This document shows, piece by piece, positions 36,404 through 56,742 of a stretch of DNA of 64,000 bases. A program made the translations under genes and the position numbers. The first letter of the stretch is position 1, and each line of letters begins with the position of its first letter. Under the pieces are notes generated by a model. It saw only the letters and a program-made list of their open reading frames with translations, was not told the DNA's origin and did not search any database. Source of the stretch: a virus (taxonomy: Duplodnaviria > Caudoviricetes); IMG/VR virus record IMGVR_UViG_3300044652_000025, positions 87,491-151,490 of that record. One strand, 5' to 3'.

Positions 36404-37831
36404 CTATGCGGCGGGGTTCAACGTGGTGGCGCCGGTCACCGTGTTGATGGAGAAGGAGATGAGGATGTAGTTCAACGGATAGGCGGGCTGGTACTGGAAC
36501 TTCGCTTCGATGACCGACGGGTCGACGGACTGCTGACGGACCGAGAGCCCGTTGTAGGCCACGATCATGTCGGCGTTCACCGCCGCTTCCAGGCAGCCGG
36601 AGATGACCCCCTGGATCCTGATCGGGGTCTCGGCGTCGATAGCGGCACCGATGAGTCCTCCGGCGTCGATCGTGCCGTAGATCAGATCGATCAGGGCGTC
36701 TTTGGCCCGCACCAGCGATAGCTCCCGGGTGAGCACCGACGTCGGATCGGTGGTCACGCCGTGGCGGACGACCATCTGGCCGTTGCGGTTGATCTCGGCC
36801 ACTGCCACACCGGAGGAACTCCAAGTGTTCTTGTTGGCCGTCGTCATGGTCGCCGCCATGCTGGCCGGGAACCCGGCGAAACTCCGGACGAGCTTCTTGG
36901 TCAGCGGCAGCTGCACGGACTGGTTGGCCAGGATCCCGGCGTAGGCCGCGGCCAGGTACTCGCCTCCGACCTCGATCATCGAGTTGGTGTAGCCGTTGTA
37001 GTACGAGAGCCGGTTGGGATAGGCCATCATGACCCGCGACGACGGAAAAGCCGCCGCCAGGGTGTCCGGCGCCGTGGTCGCTCCGGGCTCGAAGCCGACG
37101 AGGCCGACGCGGTAGAGGTTGTCGCCGACGAGCCGTTCGACGTGGTTCTTGAGATCCCCACCGACTCCCTGGATGTCGGACTGGACGGTCAGGCCGACCG
37201 GGAGGACGACCACGACGTTGACGTCCGAGTAGGCCTCCAACTGTGTGAGGGCGGCGGCGAGATGCGCTTGGGTGGTGGAGGATCCGTCCGAGTCGGGGGT
37301 GGCGACGATGACCAGCTGCCGGGCACCGTTCTCGAAGGCCACCTTGGCCGCCAGCGACAGCGGCGAGGTCACCGCCCCAGTGAGGAGATCGATCGGCTCG
37401 CCGTAGGCGTCCTTGACGTCCTCGTAGTTCTGGAACCGCTGGGGCTGGGCGTAGTCGGCGTCGGTGTAGTGGTAGGTCACGTAGACCGTCGCGCCATCGG
37501 TGATCCCACCGCCGTTGACCCGGGCAATCGTGGTGGTGTTGTTCGGTGCCGTGCCCGTCTGGTTGCGGGTGAAGTCAGTGGTGAGGGCGTAGACCGTGCC
37601 GTCAGCCCCGGAGACCTGGAAGCCGGACGCGGTGATGATGCCGTCCTTGGCCAGGGCCACCCCGGTGGTGCCGGTCAGGGTGACGGCCTCGGTGTTGACG
37701 CGGTAGCCGATACCGGGTCCGGCGATAGCGACGACCGTTGGGGCGATCGTCTGAACAGTGACGAGAGACGTCGCCTGTTCCTCGACGTAGACGCCCGGAG
37801 GAAGATACTGACCGCTTGTGAACGAGGGCAT
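36404..37831 (-). CDS. Tail sheath protein
   Basis: YLPPGVYVEE N-terminus; VRHGVTTD...ELSLVR; YQPAYPLNYI. Confidence 0.92.
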   Translation of the reverse strand: MPSFTSGQYLPPGVYVEEQATSLVTVQTIAPTVVAIAGPGIGYRVNTEAVTLTGTTGVALAKDGIITASGFQVSGADGTVYALTTDFTRNQTGTAPNNTTTIARVNGGGITDGATVYVTYHYTDADYAQPQRFQNYEDVKDAYGEPIDLLTGAVTSPLSLAAKVAFENGARQLVIVATPDSDGSSTTQAHLAAALTQLEAYSDVNVVVVLPVGLTVQSDIQGVGGDLKNHVERLVGDNLYRVGLVGFEPGATTAPDTLAAAFPSSRVMMAYPNRLSYYNGYTNSMIEVGGEYLAAAYAGILANQSVQLPLTKKLVRSFAGFPASMAATMTTANKNTWSSSGVAVAEINRNGQMVVRHGVTTDPTSVLTRELSLVRAKDALIDLIYGTIDAGGLIGAAIDAETPIRIQGVISGCLEAAVNADMIVAYNGLSVRQQSVDPSVIEAKFQYQPAYPLNYILISFSINTVTGATTLNPAA

Positions 37832-39908: not shown

Positions 39909-40535
39909 TCAGAACAGCTTCGACAGCGACAGGATGACCTCGAAGGCCACCGAGCCCGCGCCGCCGCTGTCGTTCTCGAACAGGTCGACTTTGACGCCGT
40001 CACCTGCCGCCAGGTAGCCCACGACGAACACCGTGTTGAAGCACGAGCCGCTGGTGGTGTCGGCGGCGCTGCATTCGTCGCTGGCCTGGCTGATGAACGG
40101 TGCCGAGCCGTTGTCGGTGCCCGCCACCACGCCGACGATCATCGACCGGCGGTAGCCGTCCTGGTTGGCCCGGTGGTTCCAGATCGTCTTCAGGAAGCAG
40201 GCGTAGATGCCGTCCGACGTGACGTTGAGCGTCTGGTTGTCGGCGTTCATCGTCACGTTCGGGTCGGTGATCAGGTTGGCGTCCCAGGTGACGTGGAGCG
40301 TGCCGGTGACCGTCTTGTTCACCGCCTCGGCCAGGGCTCCGTTCTTGTTCGGCGTGGCCCCGCCTCCTCCGGCCGGAGCCGGAGTGACGTCGATGACCTC
40401 ATCTCCAAGAGCGGTGGGGGAGATCTCGGCGAACTGGTCGTCGGTGAGGGTGACCTCGTCCCCGGCGTTGTAGTGGCCGCCGTCCGGTAGCTCGACGTTG
40501 TGCTTGCCGTCGGCGATCTTGACCCTGTGTGTCAT
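39909..40535 (-). CDS. Virion protein with shared N-terminal anchor
   Basis: VKIADGKHNVELPDGGHYNAGDEVTLTDDQF. Confidence 0.75.
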   Translation of the reverse strand: MTHRVKIADGKHNVELPDGGHYNAGDEVTLTDDQFAEISPTALGDEVIDVTPAPAGGGGATPNKNGALAEAVNKTVTGTLHVTWDANLITDPNVTMNADNQTLNVTSDGIYACFLKTIWNHRANQDGYRRSMIVGVVAGTDNGSAPFISQASDECSAADTTSGSCFNTVFVVGYLAAGDGVKVDLFENDSGGAGSVAFEVILSLSKLF

Positions 40536-43849: not shown

Positions 43850-44842
43850 CTACGCCTTCGTGACCGTGGTGATGCCCCGAGGGTTGAGGATGGCCATGGT
43901 GACCATCTCGTCAAAGACCCAGCCCTTCCAGAACGCCTCGACGTTGTGGTTCTCCTCGACGTCGAGGGAGTACAGGACAGGGAACACACCGAGGAAGTCG
44001 GGGTTCGGCAGGATGAAGATCTTGCCCTGGGGCACGATGATCGACCGCTGGATCTGGAACTCGCCGAAGGTGGTGATCCGCTCCCCGGCGACGACCCGGT
44101 CCTTGAAGGCCCAGCCCGTCTGGTTGATGTCCCACCGGTAGAAGTCCCGGTAGTCCATCGGGTTGACCAGGATGCGGCCCGCCTCGATCTCGTGCATGTC
44201 CGAGAGCGCCACCGCGGCGTAGAGACTCTGCGGAGTGAAGTAGCCCGAGGTCTCGGTCACGTTGTGGTTCGGGGTGATGTCGTGGTCCGGCCGGGTGGCG
44301 TAGTCCGTCACCGCCGCCTGGAGGATGACCATCAGGCGGCTGTCCTCCTGCTTGAGGATCGCCTGCTTGGTCTCGTCCTGGGCCTGCTCCACGGCGTTGA
44401 TCCGGAGGTAGTACAGATCCTCCTTGCGGATCGCCGGACGGCTGGCGATGCGGAAGAACCGCACCGGCACGCGCTTGCCCTCGAACGGGGTCACACGGAC
44501 CTCGCCCTCGGTGCCGGACATGATGTACGCCTGCCCCAGGTCGTCCCACACGTCGTACTCGACCGGGGTGCCCGGGGTGACCGGGTCCTCGATGAGGACG
44601 TTGCGGACGATGCCCTGGTAGCGGAGCTTCAGCTGGATCGGGCCGATCATGCCCACGCCCAGCCTACGGATCCCGTTGACCTCATCCTGGAGGATGAGGG
44701 CCATCTTCTTGACCTTCTGCTCGTGGGTCAGGGCGCTCTTGGAGCCGTCGCCCTGCCGACGGCGAAGGATCTCGGCGACGTAGTCGTCGGACTTCTTCGC
44801 CACCTTGGGTCGAAGACCCCCTGCCACAGTCAGGCTGCTCAT
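43850..44842 (-). CDS. Major capsid protein (330 aa)
   Basis: MIGPIQLKLRYQGIVRNVL...ILNPRG as recalled for Bxz1-like MCP; RBS AAAGGA; downstream terminator. Confidence 0.9.
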   Translation of the reverse strand: MSSLTVAGGLRPKVAKKSDDYVAEILRRRQGDGSKSALTHEQKVKKMALILQDEVNGIRRLGVGMIGPIQLKLRYQGIVRNVLIEDPVTPGTPVEYDVWDDLGQAYIMSGTEGEVRVTPFEGKRVPVRFFRIASRPAIRKEDLYYLRINAVEQAQDETKQAILKQEDSRLMVILQAAVTDYATRPDHDITPNHNVTETSGYFTPQSLYAAVALSDMHEIEAGRILVNPMDYRDFYRWDINQTGWAFKDRVVAGERITTFGEFQIQRSIIVPQGKIFILPNPDFLGVFPVLYSLDVEENHNVEAFWKGWVFDEMVTMAILNPRGITTVTKA

Positions 44843-44885: not shown

Positions 44886-45398
44886 CTACGGGGTGCGCGG
44901 CATGAGGCCGCCGATGGTGATCTTGGTGGCACTGTCGACCGAGATCAGCCGGGCGACCGGAGCAGCCGAGGCGCCGGTGGCTCCGGCCGGGACGAGCTTG
45001 CCCCGGTTGGCGCCGGTAGTGGAGGCGTGGACCAGGAGGTCCGTGCCGTTGCCCGGGTCGGTCCAGGTCGCCGTAGTGTCGAACGCCGGGGCGAGGATCT
45101 CGAACTCGGCGTCGGCGGCGAGTACCCAGACGGCCAGGACGTTGATCCCGGCCTCCTCGACCTCATCGATCCCGTCGCCGCCGATGTAGAGGGCGCACAG
45201 CCCGGCCGGGACGCCGGTCCCGTTGAGGAGGGTGTAGTTCTCCCCGGCGGTCTTCATCATGCACATGCCAGGCCAGATGTCGACGCTTCGGTCCCACGCC
45301 GGGTCGAGGAAGCAGGACTTGGGCGTCGCCTGGGTCCAACCGTAAAGCGGCCGGATGGTCCGCTTGATGTAAGCCTTATTCAAAGTCGTGCGGATCAC
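44886..45398 (-). CDS. Capsid decoration/cement protein
   Basis: Between scaffold and MCP; KRTIRPLY...PGM. Confidence 0.75.
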   Translation of the reverse strand: MIRTTLNKAYIKRTIRPLYGWTQATPKSCFLDPAWDRSVDIWPGMCMMKTAGENYTLLNGTGVPAGLCALYIGGDGIDEVEEAGINVLAVWVLAADAEFEILAPAFDTTATWTDPGNGTDLLVHASTTGANRGKLVPAGATGASAAPVARLISVDSATKITIGGLMPRTP

Positions 45399-45551: not shown

Positions 45552-48500
45552 CTACTCGAAGAGCAACTCGTCGGCGTCGACCGAGGCCGTCACCTGCATC
45601 TGGGGCTGAGGCGGTTCGACGAACGACGGGGCCGTCCGCTCCCTGCTGGCCGACCGCGGGACGAGGTTGCGCTTGGCCTGGCGGGCCGGTCCCTGACCCT
45701 GACGGATGACCTTGGAGAGGGTGTTGATCTCCGCCTGCATCACCTCGTCCGAGATGTCCGACGACGCGATGTCGGTGGCCATAGCCAGGTCGTCGCCATC
45801 GTCGATGCCAGCCTGGATACGCAGCCGAGCCAGGCGCAGGGCGGCAAAGGTCCGAGCTTCACGAGCGCCTGTCGTCGCCCGCTGCGCGAAGTCGCCTTCG
45901 AGCGGGAACGCCGTGTCGGGGTTGTTCGGGTTGCCAACGCGAACGTCCGTTTCGGTCTTGACGTCGGCCAGCGGTAGTGGTCCCTCGGTGCCGGTGACCG
46001 GCCGGGTCGGATCCTGCTCGTTGAGGTCGAGCGGCTCGTCCAGGACGGTCTCGGTGCCGGTGACGTCGGTGGTGGCGTCGGCTGATACGTCAGTGACCGG
46101 GGTGGCGCCGATGGCCTCGACGTCGGTGTCGTTGAGGTCGCCGAGGGCCTCTTCCGTGGTCTCGGCCGGAGCTTCGGCCGGAGGGTCGGCGATGGGCTGG
46201 GCGGGGTTGTTCTCATCGGCGACCTTCATGAGCGCCGCGAACTTGGGGTGCTGGTCGACCCCCGCCAGACGGGCGATGGCTTCGAGGCCCCGCCGGAGCG
46301 CGGCGATCTGCTGGGCCTGACGGTCGATGATCTTCTGCTGCTCGGCGAGGGCTGCTAGGACGGGTCGCATAATCTGCTCCTTCTGCGACTGCTTCTGGTT
46401 CTGATCCTTCTTCTCGGATTCAGCCTCTGTCTGACTGTCCTGTCCCTGCTGCTGGGGTGGCTGTTGGTCTGGCTGGTCGAGCTTGTCGTTGCCCACTGGC
46501 CGAAGAGTCCCCTTGCCGCATTCCGGGCAGGTGTCGCCCGCCTGTGGGGTGGTCTCCGGTATCTCGTCGGGCTGTTCCTCGTCGCCCTTCAGCTTGGGCG
46601 AAGTCGGGGTACCGTCCTTCGACGGCGGGTGCGGAAGCGACGGTGACTGCGGGAAGCTGGCGGGCGCCGCGGTCTTCGACTGCTTGTCCATCCACGGCGG
46701 CTTGGACTTCTTCTTCGGCTTGCCATCCTCGTCGGTCGCGTCTTCGTCCTCATCATTCGATGAGTCGGATGTCTCTCCGCCGCCGAACATCTGCTCGAAC
46801 TCGGCGTTGATGTCGCCGCCGCCATCGACCGGCGCCGCATCTGCCTCAGTCTCGGCCGTGGGGTCGGAGTTGAACTTCGCCCCGCACTGATCACAGACCA
46901 GCTGCTCATTACCGGGCTCGACGGCGCCCTCGTCCTCGTCCTGGCGCAGGTCGACGTCCCTGGCCTGTTCCAAGTCGGGATCCATGAAGCTGTCCGGCGG
47001 CTTAACGAAGCCACAGACGAGGCACTTCTCGCCGTCGTAGGCCGCTTCCTCGCCGCAGACGGGGCAGTCGGCGTCACGCAAAGTGTCCACTTGTGCCGGT
47101 GCCTTGGCCTCACCGTATGAAATGGTCTGTAGACTGGAATCGCCGGGGTTCGGCATGGCAAGGCGCTTTTCGCCGGGCCGGGTATTGGCACGACTTGTCA
47201 TGGCAGGAGTACCGGGAGGCGGCGTTCGCGTCGCCTCCCTTTCCTTGGCGCCCCACTTGTGCTCGAAGCACCCACCGTTCCGGCGGCAGTGGTAGGTGTG
47301 GAACTTCTCCCGGCCCGCGGCATTGTCGAAGTAGCCGTCGTACCAGGACTCCGGCTCGTTGCGGGCGTCGCCGCCCTCCAGGTTCCGGGACTTCCAGCCG
47401 CGGTTGTAGTGCTTGCGGTACTCGGGATCGACACCATCACCGACGGCGGCCTCGAAGGGTAGACGCCCCTCGATGATGTCCCACGCCTCCTTGACCGTCT
47501 TGCCCTCGGCGTAGAGCAGGTACGCCTCGGCCGAGTCCCACTCGCCGCGGCCGACGAAGAGCGAGTAGTCCCGCAGGTTGGAGACCACGCCGCGGCGGTA
47601 GTCCGGGCCGGTCTGGACGTAGGGCAGCAGGGCCTCGACGCGCTCGCGGTCCTCGGTCCGGTAGTTGATAGTCCCGAAGCCCGGCACGTCCATCGTCTCG
47701 ACCGCGGCGGTGCGCCGGAGCGCAGCCAGGCGGCGGCGTCCCTCGACGCCACCGTGCTCCTCGACGGCCTTGGGGTCGGGCTTGTCCAGCCAGTCCAGGA
47801 ACGGCATCCCCCACTCCTCGCAGAACTTATTGGCCTCGGCCAGGAGGGGGATGATGTCCATGTCGATCCGATCGATGTCGACGTCGAGATCCCCCTCCTT
47901 CCCGTCGGCCCAGTCGGTGGCGGCCAGGGCGGCCCAGCGGTGGTGGCCGTCGACGATGTAGTTGTCCTTGGAGACGAAGATCCGGTCGGGCTCGCCCTGC
48001 TCGTTGAGGACCACTGGCGGCTTGCCGGTCTTGGCGATCTCACCCTCGATCCAGTCGGCCATCCCGGCGATCTTGGAGGACCGCAGCTGGTTCTGAGTGG
48101 CCTTGAGGAAGGTGGCCTTCTCGGTGGTCGGCTCGACGGCGACACCACGCTCGACGAGCATCTTGCGGAACAGCGGCTGGAGGTTGTACTCGCCGTTCGG
48201 CCCCTTGGGGATGTTCTCCTTGAGGATCTTCGAGTCCTTGAACGGCTTCTTGGTCTTCAGCTGGGGCATCTGGATGCGGGGGACACCCTTGCTCTGGACG
48301 CAGAAGAGGTTCGTCCCCTTGACCGTGACGTTGCACAGGTCGATCTCGACATCCTGACCCTTGGCCCTGGCGTCCTTGATCATGTCGCCGAGCTTGTCTA
48401 GCAGGGTGGATACGACCCTGGGCTGCTTGAGGTTGACGTGCTTACCCTCGGCCAGGGCCTTGGCCGCCACCTCGACATCGTCGGTCTCGATGGGGTTCTG

Positions 48501-50519
48501 GGGGTGGCCCTCCTCGCGGTCCTCCCGCTTGGGCTTGTCCTCGGCGGCGGCCTCTTCGGTCTCGTCCTTCCCCGCGTCCTCGGCGCCGGGCCGCGGCGAC
48601 TTGGGGGCGGCGTGACCACCGGGGCCGGTCGTCCACTCGCCGCTCTTGTCCCGCTTCTCGCCCGGATCGTAGGCCAGGAACCGGAACTCATTGTTCAATG
48701 AGGCCGCCCCGCCCGCCGTCTTGGAGGCCCAGAACCCACTCAGCCAGTCGGAGTTGCGACGCTTCGGACGGCGACCCAGGGGGCGCTTGCCGGTGTGGCG
48801 GAGGAACCGGCCGCGGCTGACGTAGACGGCGAACCCGCACGCCGGGCAGGTCGCCCGACCCTCATGCGGTGCCCCTGGCGGGACAGGGGTGTCGGTCCCC
48901 GGGCAGGCGGACCCGCCACTGGGGGCATCGTCGGCGTCGGCGTCGCCATCGGACGCCTCCACCAGCGCGGCGAAGGAGGCGTTGAGCGCCGCGGTCTTCG
49001 AGGCGTAGGCGTGCTGATGGGTGTCGTGCCAGAGGTCGTAGTCCCGGAGGAACTTCTCGATCTCGGCGTGCCACTCGGGGTTGTGCGGCCCTGGCGGGGG
49101 CAGCTGACCGTGGGGGAAGAACTTCTCGCCCATGTTCTTCCGCATGTCAGCCATCATCGAGTCGTAGTACCGCTGGTACTCCTCGTCGCTCATGTTCTCG
49201 ATGTCTTGCATCGACGGGCGGCCGGTGGGGATCTGCGCCTCCTGCAACCTGTTGCTGGGCACCGGCTGACGAGCCTTACGGGGCACGTAGCTCCGCATCC
49301 AGTTGGCCAGCTGGCCCGGAGAGGAGAACTCGGTGGTCTGCTCATCGCGACCCCAATAGAACCCCTGGGTCCGGTCGATGACGAGTTCGACGGAGGTCTT
49401 GCGGATCTCCAGATCACGGCAGATGGTCAGCATGGTCTGAGCCTGCGCCTCGGTCGGCTTGATGACCGCGTCCATGCTGATCTTGAAACTGGGGTTCCGG
49501 GGATAGTTGATGATCAGTCCCCGGATCGCTCCCTGGCCGAACCCTGTGTCATAACCGTAATCAGCATGCATCTCGACCGCGACGACCTTGCCGTCGGGCA
49601 GCATCCAGATGGCGTTGTACTCGCCCATGCCCTTGGGAAAGGCATCCGGAAACTTGTTCAAATAGTCAGTAACACTGAAAGTACCGTAGACCCTACAATA
49701 CTTCTGCAACTCAGCAATGAAGGAATCCAGAGTCGCTATCTTGAATTTGAAGTCGTCATGGCCCGGCAAGGTCCGCCTCGGCTCGGCTAGTCCCGGCAAG
49801 GCTCGTTGCGGTTGGGCATGGCTGTCATGGTGCGGTTTGGAAGCGGCCTTGGAGACTACTCCAGGGCCGCTTTCGACTCCCAAAAAGTATGCAGTTGGGT
49901 CTGCTGGTTCTTCTACCAGCAAGCTGTTCTCGAAGAACCGGAGTCCGTAACAGATCTCATGTACGAGGACATCCTCTTGTGTACCTGAGGCCGTGCGGCG
50001 GCGGATCCTTTTGCCCTTCAGCTTCGGGATGTGTTGGCAGTACTCCAGGGGGGTCGAGGCACGGTTCCCACAGAACGAACACACCGAGTACTCGACATCG
50101 GTTCCCATCGAGGTCCGGTCGACCTCACCAGCGAGGATGGCCTGGGCCAGCTTGGGGAACTTCTGGCCATCGATCTCCATCAAAACCTCAACCCATGTGT
50201 CCGGCGTCCCATCCGGGTTCGTGTCCTCGTGGAGGGCGGCGTCGATGATGACACCGCGGGCGCGTCGGTGGTTGTCGTTGCGGTGGTTGACGAAGACCGG
50301 CTTGCCGACGAAGGTCCGATAGGCGGTCTTGATCTCCTCGGCCGGGAAGGTGTCGAAGTTATCGTTCGTCCGCGACGAGATGGCCCGGCTCCTCACGTAG
50401 AGGAACCCTGGCCGCTTCTCATAGATGAATGAGTGCCGGTGGGCGGTACGGAACGTGGCCCGCTGGTCACCCATCTCCGCGCTGAGGACGGCGGCCGACG
50501 CGAACTTGGTCAGCATCAC
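45552..50519 (-). CDS. Capsid maturation protease-scaffold polyprotein with inserted domains (1655 aa)
   Basis: N-terminal FVGKPVFVNH...RGVIIDA...TSMG..V..S.CS.CGN protease; ParB/Srx-like IVDGHHRW; acidic helical C-terminus; upstream of MCP. Confidence 0.85.
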   Translation of the reverse strand: MMLTKFASAAVLSAEMGDQRATFRTAHRHSFIYEKRPGFLYVRSRAISSRTNDNFDTFPAEEIKTAYRTFVGKPVFVNHRNDNHRRARGVIIDAALHEDTNPDGTPDTWVEVLMEIDGQKFPKLAQAILAGEVDRTSMGTDVEYSVCSFCGNRASTPLEYCQHIPKLKGKRIRRRTASGTQEDVLVHEICYGLRFFENSLLVEEPADPTAYFLGVESGPGVVSKAASKPHHDSHAQPQRALPGLAEPRRTLPGHDDFKFKIATLDSFIAELQKYCRVYGTFSVTDYLNKFPDAFPKGMGEYNAIWMLPDGKVVAVEMHADYGYDTGFGQGAIRGLIINYPRNPSFKISMDAVIKPTEAQAQTMLTICRDLEIRKTSVELVIDRTQGFYWGRDEQTTEFSSPGQLANWMRSYVPRKARQPVPSNRLQEAQIPTGRPSMQDIENMSDEEYQRYYDSMMADMRKNMGEKFFPHGQLPPPGPHNPEWHAEIEKFLRDYDLWHDTHQHAYASKTAALNASFAALVEASDGDADADDAPSGGSACPGTDTPVPPGAPHEGRATCPACGFAVYVSRGRFLRHTGKRPLGRRPKRRNSDWLSGFWASKTAGGAASLNNEFRFLAYDPGEKRDKSGEWTTGPGGHAAPKSPRPGAEDAGKDETEEAAAEDKPKREDREEGHPQNPIETDDVEVAAKALAEGKHVNLKQPRVVSTLLDKLGDMIKDARAKGQDVEIDLCNVTVKGTNLFCVQSKGVPRIQMPQLKTKKPFKDSKILKENIPKGPNGEYNLQPLFRKMLVERGVAVEPTTEKATFLKATQNQLRSSKIAGMADWIEGEIAKTGKPPVVLNEQGEPDRIFVSKDNYIVDGHHRWAALAATDWADGKEGDLDVDIDRIDMDIIPLLAEANKFCEEWGMPFLDWLDKPDPKAVEEHGGVEGRRRLAALRRTAAVETMDVPGFGTINYRTEDRERVEALLPYVQTGPDYRRGVVSNLRDYSLFVGRGEWDSAEAYLLYAEGKTVKEAWDIIEGRLPFEAAVGDGVDPEYRKHYNRGWKSRNLEGGDARNEPESWYDGYFDNAAGREKFHTYHCRRNGGCFEHKWGAKEREATRTPPPGTPAMTSRANTRPGEKRLAMPNPGDSSLQTISYGEAKAPAQVDTLRDADCPVCGEEAAYDGEKCLVCGFVKPPDSFMDPDLEQARDVDLRQDEDEGAVEPGNEQLVCDQCGAKFNSDPTAETEADAAPVDGGGDINAEFEQMFGGGETSDSSNDEDEDATDEDGKPKKKSKPPWMDKQSKTAAPASFPQSPSLPHPPSKDGTPTSPKLKGDEEQPDEIPETTPQAGDTCPECGKGTLRPVGNDKLDQPDQQPPQQQGQDSQTEAESEKKDQNQKQSQKEQIMRPVLAALAEQQKIIDRQAQQIAALRRGLEAIARLAGVDQHPKFAALMKVADENNPAQPIADPPAEAPAETTEEALGDLNDTDVEAIGATPVTDVSADATTDVTGTETVLDEPLDLNEQDPTRPVTGTEGPLPLADVKTETDVRVGNPNNPDTAFPLEGDFAQRATTGAREARTFAALRLARLRIQAGIDDGDDLAMATDIASSDISDEVMQAEINTLSKVIRQGQGPARQAKRNLVPRSASRERTAPSFVEPPQPQMQVTASVDADELLFE

Positions 50520-52954: not shown

Positions 52955-53533
52955 CTAGGCGACGGGCTCGGTTGAGAGGGTGCCGTCGTTGGCGACGTTG
53001 ATTCGGTGCATCGAGTTGTCTGGGGCGAAGAGAATCAGGCCGTAACCGTGGCTGTACCCCATTCGAAGGTCAGCGTTGACATTGACTATCCCTGCCCCTC
53101 CGCTGGTCATGTAAAGGTCGGTGTCGGAGCCGTTCGTGGAAGAAGACAGGTTCGCTCCGTTGTTGACTGGATCGAAGGTGCCGTCGCCCAGGGCCAACGA
53201 GCCGTGCCCGGAAAGCACCCAACGCGGAAACGCGTCGCCTGCCACCTTGACTGCCAGTACCGGTTGGTCGGCGGGGAGGACAAGGCATTGCATCGTGGCG
53301 TCGCCGCCGCGGATCGGATCGGGGACGGTTTCGGTGGTGAAATCGGTAGCAGCGACAGATGTGCCGGACTGTCCTCCCACCTGAGTAGCGGTGAGGACGG
53401 ACCCGATGGCGTTCTGATCGAGTCGGGCGTACTGATCATCGGTCAGGGTGACCACGTCGCCCGCGTCGTAGTGACCCCCGTCGGGTAATTCGATGTTCGA
53501 GTGCCCGGCCGCGATGGTGACCTGCCAGGGCAT
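52955..53533 (-). CDS. Virion protein with shared N-terminal anchor
   Basis: VTIAAGHSNIELPDGGHYDAGDVVTLTDDQY; C-terminal APDNSMHRINVANDGTL. Confidence 0.75.
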   Translation of the reverse strand: MPWQVTIAAGHSNIELPDGGHYDAGDVVTLTDDQYARLDQNAIGSVLTATQVGGQSGTSVAATDFTTETVPDPIRGGDATMQCLVLPADQPVLAVKVAGDAFPRWVLSGHGSLALGDGTFDPVNNGANLSSSTNGSDTDLYMTSGGAGIVNVNADLRMGYSHGYGLILFAPDNSMHRINVANDGTLSTEPVA

Positions 53534-54180
53534 CAGATCACCGGGATGGCCACGTCGCCCTGCTCGGAGAGCAGGCGTGCCCAGGTCGTCTTGGACATCC
53601 AGAAGTAGCCCTTGTCGCCCCAGCCCGCCGTCCAGTGGTTGAGGCAGCGGACGCGGTCGTTAGCCATCTCGTAGCCCAGCACCGTGAACTCATGGCCTCC
53701 GGCCACAGCGCCCCCGATACGCACCGTACCGTCCGGGAGCGGGTGGAACATGGCCTCGTACCACGGCACCCCGGTGATGACCGGCCCGAGCATCAGTGCC
53801 GCCATGGCGTGGTCGATCCCGAAGGCGTGCTTGTAGCCCCGGATGTAGCCCTTCTCCTTGCACGCCTTCATCACCGCCAGGCCCGAGGAGCCGGTGTCAT
53901 CGGGCGGGTAGTGACCCGGGATCGAGTCGATCGTCGTCGCCAGTTCATAGACGGCCAGGGCATCCTTCTCAGTGAAGTTCTCGGGCTTGGCGGTGTAGTA
54001 CGGCCCACTCATGAGCACCTCGACCGCCGAGTTGCCGGTGCAGCTGCCGATGTCACCCTGGTCGAGCACCTGGCCGTGGTACTCCCACATCACGTCGTGG
54101 AGACGGGCAGCCATGGCGGCCTGGTGCTGCTTGGATCTCGGGTCATGTTCGGCGTGGCGGCCGAGGGTCATGGTGGGCAT
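53533..54180 (-). CDS. Papain-like (C1) cysteine peptidase
   Basis: DQGDIGSCTG, GGHE, NHW..GWGDKGYF. Confidence 0.88.
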   Translation of the reverse strand: MPTMTLGRHAEHDPRSKQHQAAMAARLHDVMWEYHGQVLDQGDIGSCTGNSAVEVLMSGPYYTAKPENFTEKDALAVYELATTIDSIPGHYPPDDTGSSGLAVMKACKEKGYIRGYKHAFGIDHAMAALMLGPVITGVPWYEAMFHPLPDGTVRIGGAVAGGHEFTVLGYEMANDRVRCLNHWTAGWGDKGYFWMSKTTWARLLSEQGDVAIPVI

Positions 54181-55246: not shown

Positions 55247-55914
55247 ACCCCGGAGCTTCTGGTGAAAATCTTGACGATCTTGACGGTGTCGCCAGGCGAC
55301 GCCGCTTCGAGGTCGGCCCCCTTGATGGTGGTGGTGATCGGGGTGTTGGGAGCGAAAGACCCACTACCGGAGGTGGCGACCGAACCCCCGGTAGTGGGCA
55401 CCACCACGCCAGCAGACTCGGGGCTGCCGGTGGTGGGGACCACACGCACCTCGTAGCGGTCAAAGGCCATGTTGGCCTCCCAGCTGAAAATGGCGGTGTC
55501 GTGCGGAGCGACCTTTGAGATCCGACCATGGTCGACCGGGGTGGTGATGGTGACCACCGGCACCGTGGTGTCGTAGTCGATGTAATCACTGAAAGGCAGC
55601 GTCTGGTTGTAGACGTCATCCCGCAGCCGCGCCCAGACGGTCTTCCGGCCGGTCCCGGGAGCGAGCCGGACGGCGTAGTTGACCTGGAAGGCCTGCCACT
55701 GCGAGGTGTTCTCGCTGGCCTGGACGGCCGGGTCGTAGGTCGGGTCGACGTCGCCCCAGATGATCATGGAGGCGACGTCGCGGGCGCCGGTCTCAAAGTC
55801 GCTCGTCCCCAGTGTGACGTTGACGTCCCGGCTGCCGGTCAGGGACGCCCCGCCGTTGATGAGGACGGAGGGATTGGCCGGAGGCCTGGTATCGAGAGTG
55901 AGGGTGAAGGTCAC
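55234..55914 (-). CDS. Ig-like virion protein (226 aa)
   Basis: GTGA-coupled start; LTLDTRPPANPSVLINGGA...IWGDVD...RDDVYN. Confidence 0.75.
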   Translation of the reverse strand: MTFTLTLDTRPPANPSVLINGGASLTGSRDVNVTLGTSDFETGARDVASMIIWGDVDPTYDPAVQASENTSQWQAFQVNYAVRLAPGTGRKTVWARLRDDVYNQTLPFSDYIDYDTTVPVVTITTPVDHGRISKVAPHDTAIFSWEANMAFDRYEVRVVPTTGSPESAGVVVPTTGGSVATSGSGSFAPNTPITTTIKGADLEAASPGDTVKIVKIFTRSSGVWSA

Positions 55915-56555
55915 GACGCCTTCACGAGCCGTGCCCCGCAGAACGTCCGGGGCGACGTGTTCGGGCTGTTGTTGTTGGTGAGCCGCAGGTTGTAGAGCTT
56001 GGCCGACTGGACCGCCTGGGCGGACTGGGGCGTGGCCGTCAGTTGGAGTTCGCCGATGGCTCCGAAGGCCGGAGGTGTCACGTTGCTGGTGGCCACCAGC
56101 GGCGGGGCCGAGAAGGGCAGCGGGTCGTTGCTGCCGTACCACTGCTGCCCGAAGCTCCAGGTCACGTAGTTGTCGGTGTCGCCGCCCTGGTTGGAGTACC
56201 AGACGTAGATGTCGAAGGTCTGCCAGTCCTGGGGCAACCGCAGAACGGTGTCGAAGACGTAGTTGGTGTCGGGGCTGATCGACCACTGCCACAGGCCGAA
56301 GGTGGTGTTGGTGAGGGTGGTTCCGGCGCCGGTGGCATGGAACTCGTTGGCGGGGATGAAGATCTCGGTCAGCCCGGCCCCGCCCGGCGAGTCGGAGATC
56401 GGCCCGAGGTCGATGACCTCGTCGCCGATCGCGGTGGATACCACCCGCTGCCACTCCTCGTCGGTCAGGATGACCTGGGCGCCCTCGTCATAGATCTCTC
56501 CGTTCGGGAGGGTGACCTCGTGCTTTCCGGCCGCGATCTGGACCTTGCGAGACAT
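55911..56555 (-). CDS. Virion protein with shared N-terminal anchor
   Basis: Start MSRKVQIAAGKHEVTLPNGEIYDEG. Confidence 0.75.
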   Translation of the reverse strand: MSRKVQIAAGKHEVTLPNGEIYDEGAQVILTDEEWQRVVSTAIGDEVIDLGPISDSPGGAGLTEIFIPANEFHATGAGTTLTNTTFGLWQWSISPDTNYVFDTVLRLPQDWQTFDIYVWYSNQGGDTDNYVTWSFGQQWYGSNDPLPFSAPPLVATSNVTPPAFGAIGELQLTATPQSAQAVQSAKLYNLRLTNNNSPNTSPRTFCGARLVKAS

Positions 56556-56556
56556 C

Positions 56557-56742
56557 TCAGGCGGCCTCCTGACGCCCCTTCTCCAAGGCGCGGTTGACGG
56601 CACCGATGGCCGCCTCGATGTTGAACTCCTCACCTTCGGTACCGATCTTGCCCATGTCGATGGCCTTACGGGCGGCGTTGATGAGGATCTCGATATCGCC
56701 GGGCCGGACTTCGATGGTGATCTGAGGGACTCGGCTCATCAT
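56557..56742 (-). CDS. Small hypothetical protein
   Basis: RBS GGAGG. Confidence 0.65.
   Translation of the reverse strand: MMSRVPQITIEVRPGDIEILINAARKAIDMGKIGTEGEEFNIEAAIGAVNRALEKGRQEAA

Follow-up and report, generated by a model that had tools for sequence, protein, structure and literature searches.

Herpesvirus UL26/UL26.5 is an assemblin protease-scaffold with a nested in-frame scaffold gene, and its release and maturation sites are cut at (V/L/I)-x-Ala|Ser; the C/Nu3 pair of phage lambda, a protease-scaffold with a nested scaffold, is similar, as is gpO of phage P2. Here we describe a comparable arrangement in a stretch of 64,000 nucleotides (the window), positions 87,491 to 151,490 of IMG/VR record IMGVR_UViG_3300044652_000025, which forms the right-hand end (64 kb) of one 151,490-bp contig (G+C ~66%) from an uncultured 151-kb actinobacterial phage. 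The focal head gene is one open reading frame (ORF) of 1654 residues (45552..50516, minus strand), and on balance we favour the view that it encodes a head-assembly polyprotein of a Bxz1/phage G-type myovirus, whose protease would cut at a short motif and whose middle modules would be loaded into the head and delivered. As in UL26/UL26.5, a single frame leads from an N-terminal protease to a C-terminal scaffold, and the modelled protease fold is the same; a putative internal start for the scaffold is kept, and one candidate site lies just past the protease and another ~25 residues short of the C-terminus, each with Ala as the presumed P1 residue and Ala or Ser after it. Unlike UL26/UL26.5, the focal protein has ~1150 residues with swappable modules between protease and scaffold, its P3/P2 preference is Lys/Arg-Thr, its scaffold fusion is facultative, and its processing is predicted from sequence.

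The second set of precedents comes from the polyvalent proteins (Iyer, Burroughs, Anand, de Souza and Aravind, 2017; PMC5512222). According to the available sections of that paper, which defines them, assemblin-like peptidases are rare in polyvalent proteins and 'always at the C termini', while DdrB-like ParB and GNAT/ART (ADP-ribosyltransferase) domains are among the head-delivered modules. The focal protein likewise combines disparate domains within a head module (a protease, a ParB/sulfiredoxin (Srx)-like module, zinc ribbons and others). It resembles the polyvalent proteins, as those sections describe them, in being a large late-gene protein, in its ParB/Srx-type module (with GNAT and ART-type modules in relatives) and in its predicted processing by a built-in peptidase and delivery with the DNA. 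It differs from that description in that its peptidase is N-terminal and accompanied by a C-terminal scaffold that would explain loading, and in that the inter-module signal is common to the capsid protein. Within the same sections we found no protease-cargo-scaffold arrangement, nested scaffold gene or such inter-module signal, and the words 'scaffold' and 'Bxz1' are absent from the text of the paper. A literature search found no earlier description in Bxz1-type phages, its thin coverage of subscription journals leaving absence unproven. Head-packaged, protease-trimmed proteins such as T4 Alt and IPI-III, the P1 Dar proteins and the SPN3US and phiKZ ejection proteins are further precedents; T4 Alt (PMC5512222, available sections) and the SPN3US ejection proteins (PMC10052503) enter the host, and four other giant proteins of the focal genome would be trans substrates of this kind. 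As predicted for the focal modules, the T4 and phiKZ/SPN3US proteins are trimmed at a short consensus by a gp21-fold protease. The T4 internal proteins and Alt are separate genes with an N-terminal targeting peptide and are processed by gp21, which cuts after Glu, whereas the focal cargo is in cis; no N-terminal capsid-targeting peptide is evident in it, and targeting peptides of the (L/I)-x-Glu type were not found there.

The focal ORF is open over 45552..50519 (minus strand), with ATG 50516, preceded by GAAGGGG, as the likely start and a stop codon at 45552-45554; an identical database protein (P0002) lies on the 151,490-bp contig. Its overall order is a protease (residues 1-225), ~900 variable residues, a double zinc-ribbon block conserved in the family and a C-terminal scaffold. 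A search of 5.8 billion proteins returned 189 homologues (at least 189 clusters) of 910-2900 residues, fused and with the frame open throughout. Only focal residues 1-220 and ~1126-1654 are common to the 119 homologues that were mapped; residues 226-1125 are matched by 0-12 of the 119. The middle is without similarity in >90% of relatives, although the capsid proteins of the group are 80-91% identical. A first description made from the letters alone (the sequence-only reading) had proposed a head protease-cargo-scaffold polyprotein with ~900 residues of unrelated modules in a variable middle slot, and this description holds up: the N-terminus is modelled with the gp21 fold, the C-terminus is a separable scaffold gene, and the slot contains different enzymes in relatives.

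The protease begins with a candidate propeptide of 25 residues (50442..50516, minus strand), modelled at a predicted local distance difference test (pLDDT) score of 56-66, which ends in RTA (23-25) just before the start of the core at HRH..FLYVRSRA; this site is conserved in homologues. The prohead protease core (residues 26-225; 49842..50441, minus strand) ends in SKAA (222-225). The N-terminal part matches phrog_18299, 'head maturation protease' (2e-25), and also phrog_2774. Neither a Pfam search (E ≤ 1) nor a search of PDB sequences gave a match to the domain, and membership of Peptidase_S77, S78 or S21 was not found. An AlphaFold model built on a 43-sequence alignment has pLDDT >90 over residues 31-205, is ordered to ~208 and disordered from 209. 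By Foldseek this model matches T4 gp21 (5jbl) with E 3e-4 and probability 1.0, and by VIA with Z 12.2 and a root-mean-square deviation of 2.6 A over 140 aligned residues; the next-best VIA matches are the proteases of varicella-zoster virus (Z 6.6) and human cytomegalovirus (Z 5.3). As modelled, then, the protease adopts the T4 gp21/assemblin fold, and it is a separate sequence family of that fold. Across the 43 sequences the candidate catalytic residues H78 and S136 are, respectively, invariant and at least 90% conserved; E187 and H162 are conserved too, and C146, C149, C160 and H162 likely form a zinc site in the core. A near-invariant RIRRxTASG (residues 172-178; window 49983-50003, minus strand) places a copy of the motif discussed below in a confidently modelled loop inside the core, where it may be cut in autolysis, act as a pseudo-substrate or have a structural role only.

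Homologous proteases occur in the cluster C mycobacteriophages (Bxz1, Rizal gp94) and Gordonia phages (Stormageddon gp13), at 39-46% identity, and in Bacillus phage G (gp19, 33%). All of these have the same synteny with decoration-like and capsid genes and the motif after the protease and near the C-terminus; the cluster C and Gordonia homologues are annotated 'hypothetical protein' or 'tape measure', and that of phage G 'gp19'. Their middle regions are unrelated to the focal one, and in phage G (gp19-gp27) the protease and the downstream head proteins are separate genes.

At the other end of the protein, the scaffold part can be recognized by its occurrence as a separate gene. Genomic context was taken from 25 IMG/VR loci, and in 11 of them (L005, L009-L011, L014, L016, L017, L020-L022, L027) the polyprotein stops after a GDxCPxCG ribbon and is followed by a gene of 259-393 residues that starts M(A/G)RPxLxAxAEQQ, ends ..DxxLF, aligns with focal residues 1383-1654 and lies directly upstream of the decoration-like and capsid genes. 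The scaffold is thus fused to the polyprotein in the window and ~10 loci, and separate in about half of the related loci. The Pro/Ser-rich stretch, CPECG ribbon and Gln/Lys-rich linker that precede it in the focal protein (1284-1382; 46371..46667, minus strand) correspond to the upstream gene end and intergenic spacer where the scaffold gene is separate. The focal scaffold (1383-1654; 45555..46370, minus strand) has 272 residues, 29 kDa and an isoelectric point of 4.4, with a helical N-terminal part (MRPVLAALAEQQ..), an acidic middle, a second helical part (ARTFAALRLARLR..) and the tail ..DADELLFE. We take this region to be the scaffold because of its size and its place before the decoration-like and capsid genes, because the module offers no other candidate, and because the capsid leader has only 15 residues.

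Where the scaffold is fused (the window, L003, L004, L013 and L023), a ribosome-binding site (RBS) and ATG are retained in frame, and the same Shine-Dalgarno (SD) sequence and ATG precede the separate genes of L017 and L027. In the focal gene the SD sequence AAGGAG (46377..46382, minus strand), kept in fused and split loci alike, stands 6 nt before ATG 46370 and is read in frame as Gln-Lys-Glu. Two in-frame ATG/GTG codons of the ORF have an SD sequence of at least 5 nt, and that of ATG 46370 is the stronger. From this conserved, strongest internal SD and ATG we infer an internal start, so that the 272-residue scaffold is most likely also made alone; a supply of free scaffold from this start, rather than the sites, most likely explains how the long form is packaged.

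The same observations bear on a very different account, in which the long ORF would be an evolutionary accident of stop loss between head genes and selfish insertions, its working proteins coming from internal starts. The parts are indeed separate genes in about half of the related loci, internal starts with an RBS exist, and some relatives contain inteins and HNH domains. This account is nonetheless highly improbable: at least 189 clusters contain fused forms of 910-2900 residues whose frame stays open throughout, the ORF start is the only one available to the protease, and just two in-frame starts have an RBS, leaving no way to make modules C, D and F on their own. As separate observations, two or three consecutive genes take the place of the single polyprotein gene in L014, L021/L022 and L011 (for example 1655 + 705 + 272 residues), the gene before the scaffold always ending in a GDxCPxCG ribbon; some neighbouring ORFs of these loci overlap by ~30 nt, where a frameshift may occur. 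Rizal gp94 (L001:6896-11008) has AAGGAGG 6 nt before an in-frame ATG at residue 594, which may be another internal start, although one whose product would differ from the scaffold part. Intein or Hint domains (PF14890, PF13403, PF05203) lie inside the polyproteins P0034, P0043, P0093 and P0013, where they probably represent selfish insertions, not cargo.

Between protease and scaffold the focal protein is a series of unlike modules. A basic linker of 36 residues (226-261; 49734..49841, minus strand), within the region modelled as disordered and ending in KIA, leads to module C (262-509; 48990..49733, minus strand), an alpha/beta domain with IWMLPDG followed by an acidic helical part and ending in SKTA, of which residues 266-416 are common to one homologue only (P0003). 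Module D (510-601; 48714..48989, minus strand) consists of an acidic or Pro-rich stretch and a CPACG zinc ribbon and ends in SKTA. In module E (602-937; 47706..48713, minus strand) a disordered leader of 65 residues (YDPGEKRDKSGEW) is followed by a core that resembles ParB/sulfiredoxin and contains DGHHR; RRTA closes the short tail behind it. Module F (938-1120; 47157..47705, minus strand), a domain without known match and a Cys/His-rich end, is again common to P0003 only and ends in KRLA. Next comes the family-conserved block (1121-1283; 46668..47156, minus strand), present in 87-108 of the 119 homologues, in which AYGE..VDTLR is accompanied by a pair of CPVCG-type zinc ribbons and by an acidic tract, with SKTA as its last residues. 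No relatives of modules C, D and F were found outside P0003; for C and F, 50,697 phage records searched by tblastn contained no match, and the ESM Atlas yielded none that was usable. Pfam gave no match to the whole focal protein, nor did searches of three of its parts against PDB sequences.

Module E is the best characterized of these. In a model made with 34 stand-alone relatives, residues 602-665 are disordered (pLDDT <50), 666-905 form a core (pLDDT >90) and 906-937 a weaker helical tail. The top 13 of the Foldseek matches listed are all ParB-N, sulfiredoxin, ParB or Noc, over ~100-150 aligned columns; the best is ParB-N (5k5d; E 9e-3, probability 1.0), and the E-values are weak. The DGHHR pocket is well kept in 35 sequences (G257, H258 and H259 invariant, D256 and R260 at least 90% conserved), and the model thus points to a ParB/sulfiredoxin-superfamily fold with a DGxHR-type pocket, which fits the 'DdrB-like ParB' domain as described in the available sections on polyvalent proteins (PMC5512222). 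The module matches phrog_2859; Pfam ParBc gave no match, no Pfam model covers the family, and tblastn against the 50,697 phage records returned one weak match. Among 1.84 billion representative proteins it has 1518 relatives, alone (277-450 residues) or inside large proteins.

In P0145 (732 residues) and P0134 (961 residues), from other phage lineages, a head protease of XkdF type (Peptidase_S78_2) is joined C-terminally to the ParB-like module, so that the pairing of this module with a head protease has arisen with two different protease families; these carriers have the C-terminal arrangement instead of the N-terminal one of the focal protein. The leader before the module (residues 601-665; window 48520-48716, minus strand) carries the motif (W/F)(D/E)E.(E/K)HPR..G(K/R)(F/W) or YDP..PRD..GKWT, whether the module is fused or stand-alone (P0142, P0148, P0173, P0200 and others), and may act as a docking peptide. 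A role of HPR..G[KR]F as a tag for cargo in general was rejected, since this motif accompanies the ParB-like module only and occurs in 9 of 120 polyproteins.

Relatives carry other domains in the slot: NUDIX, GNAT, Arr-like ADP-ribosyltransferase, HNH, DUF7178, double zinc ribbons and inteins, besides ParB-like modules. DUF7178 had been considered as a conserved C-terminal block and was rejected as such, being a cargo module of relatives that is absent from the focal protein. The ParB-like module is found at six different positions and is present twice in P0017, P0019 and P0020, and the IWMLPDG module is in two copies in P0003; by these comparisons, modules move and duplicate among polyproteins. 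The middle modules might instead serve as an assembly core or organize the packaged DNA, much as the phiKZ inner body or the T4 core, with, for instance, zinc ribbons and a ParB-like DNA binder acting in the capsid or the producing cell and then being degraded or left in the empty head. Many of them are zinc ribbons or nucleic acid-type domains, the double zinc-ribbon block beside the scaffold is conserved in nearly all relatives, and we infer rather than observe their ejection. An assembly core would, however, be expected to be conserved, whereas the middle is dissimilar in >90% of relatives whose capsid proteins are 80-91% identical, and the slot holds enzymes of host-conflict type (NUDIX, GNAT, Arr-like ADP-ribosyltransferase, HNH); we therefore regard this role as unlikely.

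The modules of the focal protein are punctuated by a recurrent motif. The sequence-only reading had named KIA 259-261 (49734), SKTA with Ala 509 (48990), 601 (48714) and 1283 (46668), and RRTA with Ala 937 (47706), each coordinate being the last base of the Ala codon, and all are present there; from these it had proposed (K/R)-x-A as the cut code. The basic-x-Ala mark survives, but the generic form does not: [KR]xA occurs 30 times in the focal protein against 20.5+-4.1 in shuffles (z 2.3), and only 1.16-fold above expectation in the family test, for which 120 relatives were taken and stretches homologous to an earlier protein were masked, leaving 18,037 mutually non-homologous residues. With its enrichment near chance, it was dropped in favour of a narrower motif. 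[KR]TA occurs 8 times in the focal protein (1.24+-1.08 expected) and 51 times in the masked residues (10.9+-3.1 expected); in the latter, [KR][TQ]A[AS] is found 28 times against 3.0 expected (z 14.8) and [SR][KR]TA 30 times against 1.4 (z 26). Permuted words and [DE][TQ]A are not enriched (1.0), nor are the T4-type [LIV]xE (182 against 178 expected), the phiKZ-type [SAG]xE (387 against 381), A-x-A or the herpes-type [VLI]xA[SA]. An unbiased count of 4-mers in the family is led, among multi-copy words, by KTAA, RTAA, RRTA and SKTA, beside zinc-ribbon and acidic words (CPVC and PVCG at the top), and the motif logo reads small residues, S/R, K/R, T (or Q), A, then A/S. These counts identify the genuine signal as [S/R]-[K/R]-T/Q-A-[A/S], not any (K/R)-x-A.

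The places where this motif recurs are telling. A [KR]xA, mostly in the form ..(T/A)AS(R)[KR]TA, lies 15-30 residues past LVEEPADPTA, the end of the protease, in most of the ~70 homologues listed. Family members end in the pattern ..R(N)LVP[RQ]xA..RTxPS[LMF]..acidic..DDEFLFE, with QRTAG near the end of Rizal gp94 and QKTAG near that of Stormageddon gp13; in the focal protein a cluster of RQA (1612-14), LVPRSA (1621-23) and RERTA|PSF (1627-29), 25-40 residues before the end (45630..45683, minus strand), offers candidate scaffold-release ('M-like') sites. The focal major capsid protein (330 residues from ATG 44842; 43850..44842, minus strand) starts ...GGLRPKVAKKSDDY and has KVA at residues 13-15 (44798..44806, minus strand), as the sequence-only reading had noticed near its N-terminus. 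In nearly all of 120 homologues these residues are [RK][VTIQ]A before KKSDDYV (..GL.P[RK][VTIQ]A[KR]KSDDYV), and the Rizal capsid protein has GRFA|KASDDY at the equivalent place, making this a candidate propeptide cleavage site. Presence at the protease exit, module junctions, scaffold tail and capsid N-terminus is the distribution expected of prohead-protease sites, and the motif is probably the cut site of this protease.

A real [K/R]-T-A-[A/S] motif could also be read by another protease, such as a host enzyme, or be an uncut docking or linker motif. A papain-like peptidase (phrog_16701, 5e-50) is encoded in the window at 53533-54180 (minus strand), 3 kb upstream of the polyprotein, and T4 gp21, the nearest structural relative of the focal protease, cuts after Glu; herpesvirus assemblins of the same fold, by contrast, cut Ala|Ser. 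The motif moreover brackets the protease domain in most relatives and is found in the capsid N-terminus and scaffold tail, which are classic prohead-protease substrates. It recurs around the separate homologous protease of phage G, where K[TIL]A is found at both ends of gp19 (KIA/KTA/KIA at its N-terminus, at the place of the focal RTA 23-25), at the start of both gp20 and gp21, and at the two ends of the portal. The phage G capsid protein, the sole experimental anchor for the cut site that we found, has been N-terminally sequenced, with 255 of 282 residues remaining (PMC5646251). Its cut was placed after A27 in GRVALA|Q, in agreement with the mass, which supports Ala at P1, as in the herpesvirus assemblins. 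Recognition by some other protease, or no cutting at all, therefore seems improbable.

Within the focal protein, the sites fit module borders. They lie outside both folded cores that were modelled, the protease (to ~208; site 223-225) and the ParB-like domain (666-905; sites 599-601 and 935-937), while KIA 815 falls inside the latter. Four edges of homology blocks shared with P0003 are 2-12 residues from a site (223/225, 266/261, 1132/1120, 1280/1283), and the RTA between modules E and F is also kept in P0003.

Similar signals are found elsewhere in the genome, where 32 of 71 motif sites fall in five giant ORFs that make up 13% of residues. Besides the focal ORF, these include, outside the window, a 977-residue chain of zinc ribbons (DZR, Lar-like and HypA-like matches; G000:C1:24285-27218, or L029:14286-17219, minus strand) with 10 [KR]TA against 0.73 expected, several of them directly before a zinc-ribbon Cys pair; in appearance it is a substrate of the 'beads on a string' type for the same code. 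The other three, all on the minus strand, have 4-5 [KR]TA each against ~1 expected: a 1652-residue protein with a head-morphogenesis PHROG that adjoins the portal (C1:10080-15038), an 873-residue protein (C1:21546-24167) and a 1640-residue protein with two GNAT domains (C1:50587-55509).

Based on these results we can outline how the favoured polyprotein scheme would work. Translation of the full length would give protease, cargo modules, double zinc-ribbon block and scaffold in one chain, and initiation at ATG 46370 would add an excess of the separate 272-residue scaffold. Through its own scaffold domain, the long form would co-assemble with free scaffold and capsid protein, bringing protease and modules into the procapsid; such loading is probable. 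There the serine protease of gp21/assemblin fold would cut after the Ala of [S/R]-[K/R]-T/Q-A|[A/S], freeing itself (23-25, 223-225), removing the 15-residue capsid propeptide, separating the modules and detaching the capsid-binding tail of the scaffold (1612-1629). Acidic scaffold pieces would exit, and folded modules of 9-37 kDa would stay with the DNA, probably to be expelled into the next host. The slot would accept new domains because loading depends only on a place between protease and scaffold, and the four other giant motif-bearing proteins would be cut in trans. Of this scheme, the sequences directly show the order of domains, the motif counts and positions, the fusion and separation of the scaffold gene, the kept internal start signal and the varied contents of the slot, and the model shows the fold; internal initiation, co-assembly, cutting after Ala, retention and ejection are predictions.

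Several points weigh against this scheme. T4 gp21, the nearest fold, cuts after Glu instead of Ala, as noted above, and the focal portal (C1:15670-18531, minus strand) has no [KR]TA site. The phage G cut falls two residues past R-V-A, which leaves the scissile register uncertain, and cutting directly after the motif Ala is an assumption of ours. The sequence-only reading had placed sites at module borders, which is supported for the focal protein and only loosely for the family: in a family-wide test homology breaks had a motif enrichment of 1.6-fold against 1.2-1.4 for controls, which is weak, and a crude hydrophobicity profile shifted slightly though significantly, neither result proving the border placement across the family. 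It had also taken the modules to be bounded by such sites, but not every module has one at each end; the NUDIX module of P0049 and the GNAT module of P0035 have a site on one side only. Internal initiation is predicted from DNA, and ejection into the host is conjectural. Our literature search found no proteomic or N-terminal data for this phage or its close relatives, and a Felix O1 paper and a phage G multi-omics preprint contain no cleavage data for the family.

More tentatively, and as a possibility rather than an expectation, the slot between protease and scaffold may be a general cargo-loading cassette, in which any motif-flanked domain would be co-assembled at a set ratio to free scaffold, released, kept and ejected, and which soil actinophages would use, along with giant proteins cut in trans, to deliver fast-changing enzymes. 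The 'automatically packaged' plug-in system of the sequence-only reading is in this respect a reasonable deduction from the diversity of the family, not a finding. To that reading we add that the scaffold has its own gene in about half of the related loci and that the in-frame RBS and ATG are retained where it is fused; further additions are statistics on the masked family, a capsid-protein site that is almost invariant, the anchor in phage G, the modelled gp21 fold and the four other giant proteins bearing the code.

If the polyprotein scheme is correct, a single mechanism would account, across a large group of phages from soil and mycobacteria, for protein loading into the head, for what the head protease recognizes and for the hypervariability of one head gene beside neighbours that are 80-90% conserved. 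Among these phages are those of the widely used Bxz1/cluster C type, in which the homologous gene of 1370 residues is still annotated 'hypothetical' or 'tape measure'. The scheme would also give a first functional context to many orphan modules, including a ParB-like family with >1500 representative relatives and no Pfam model, and its cleavage code is simple and testable. In laboratory strains, a loading slot encoded in cis could also become a tool to package chosen proteins into phage capsids.

The polyprotein gene belongs to a minus-strand myovirus structural module that includes the tail sheath (36404-37831), the major capsid protein (phrog_2522, 8e-101) and, between the capsid and polyprotein genes, a decoration-like protein of 170 residues (44886-45398; phrog_2783), which occupies the place held in phage G by the capsid decoration protein. 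The cultured phages closest to the focal one are the Gordonia phages Skog, Stormageddon and RedWattleHog and the cluster C mycobacteriophages (Bxz1 type), with whose capsid proteins the focal capsid protein has 58% identity. At the equivalent place these phages have a 'hypothetical protein' of 1089-1370 residues (mistakenly noted as 'tape measure' in the case of Rizal gp94), then a protein of ~170-180 residues and the capsid gene; the head module thus includes the protease, upstream of the gene for the capsid protein, in the focal phage and its relatives alike. Most of the 25 loci have the order polyprotein, decoration-like gene, capsid gene, while several show neither or one of the downstream genes. 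Two further genes of the window (39909-40535 and 55911-56633, both minus strand), for which no link to the polyprotein was seen, have a common N-terminal stretch of ~50 residues (..KIADGKHNVELPDG.. and ..QIAAGKHEVTLPNG..) and then continue into unrelated sequence.

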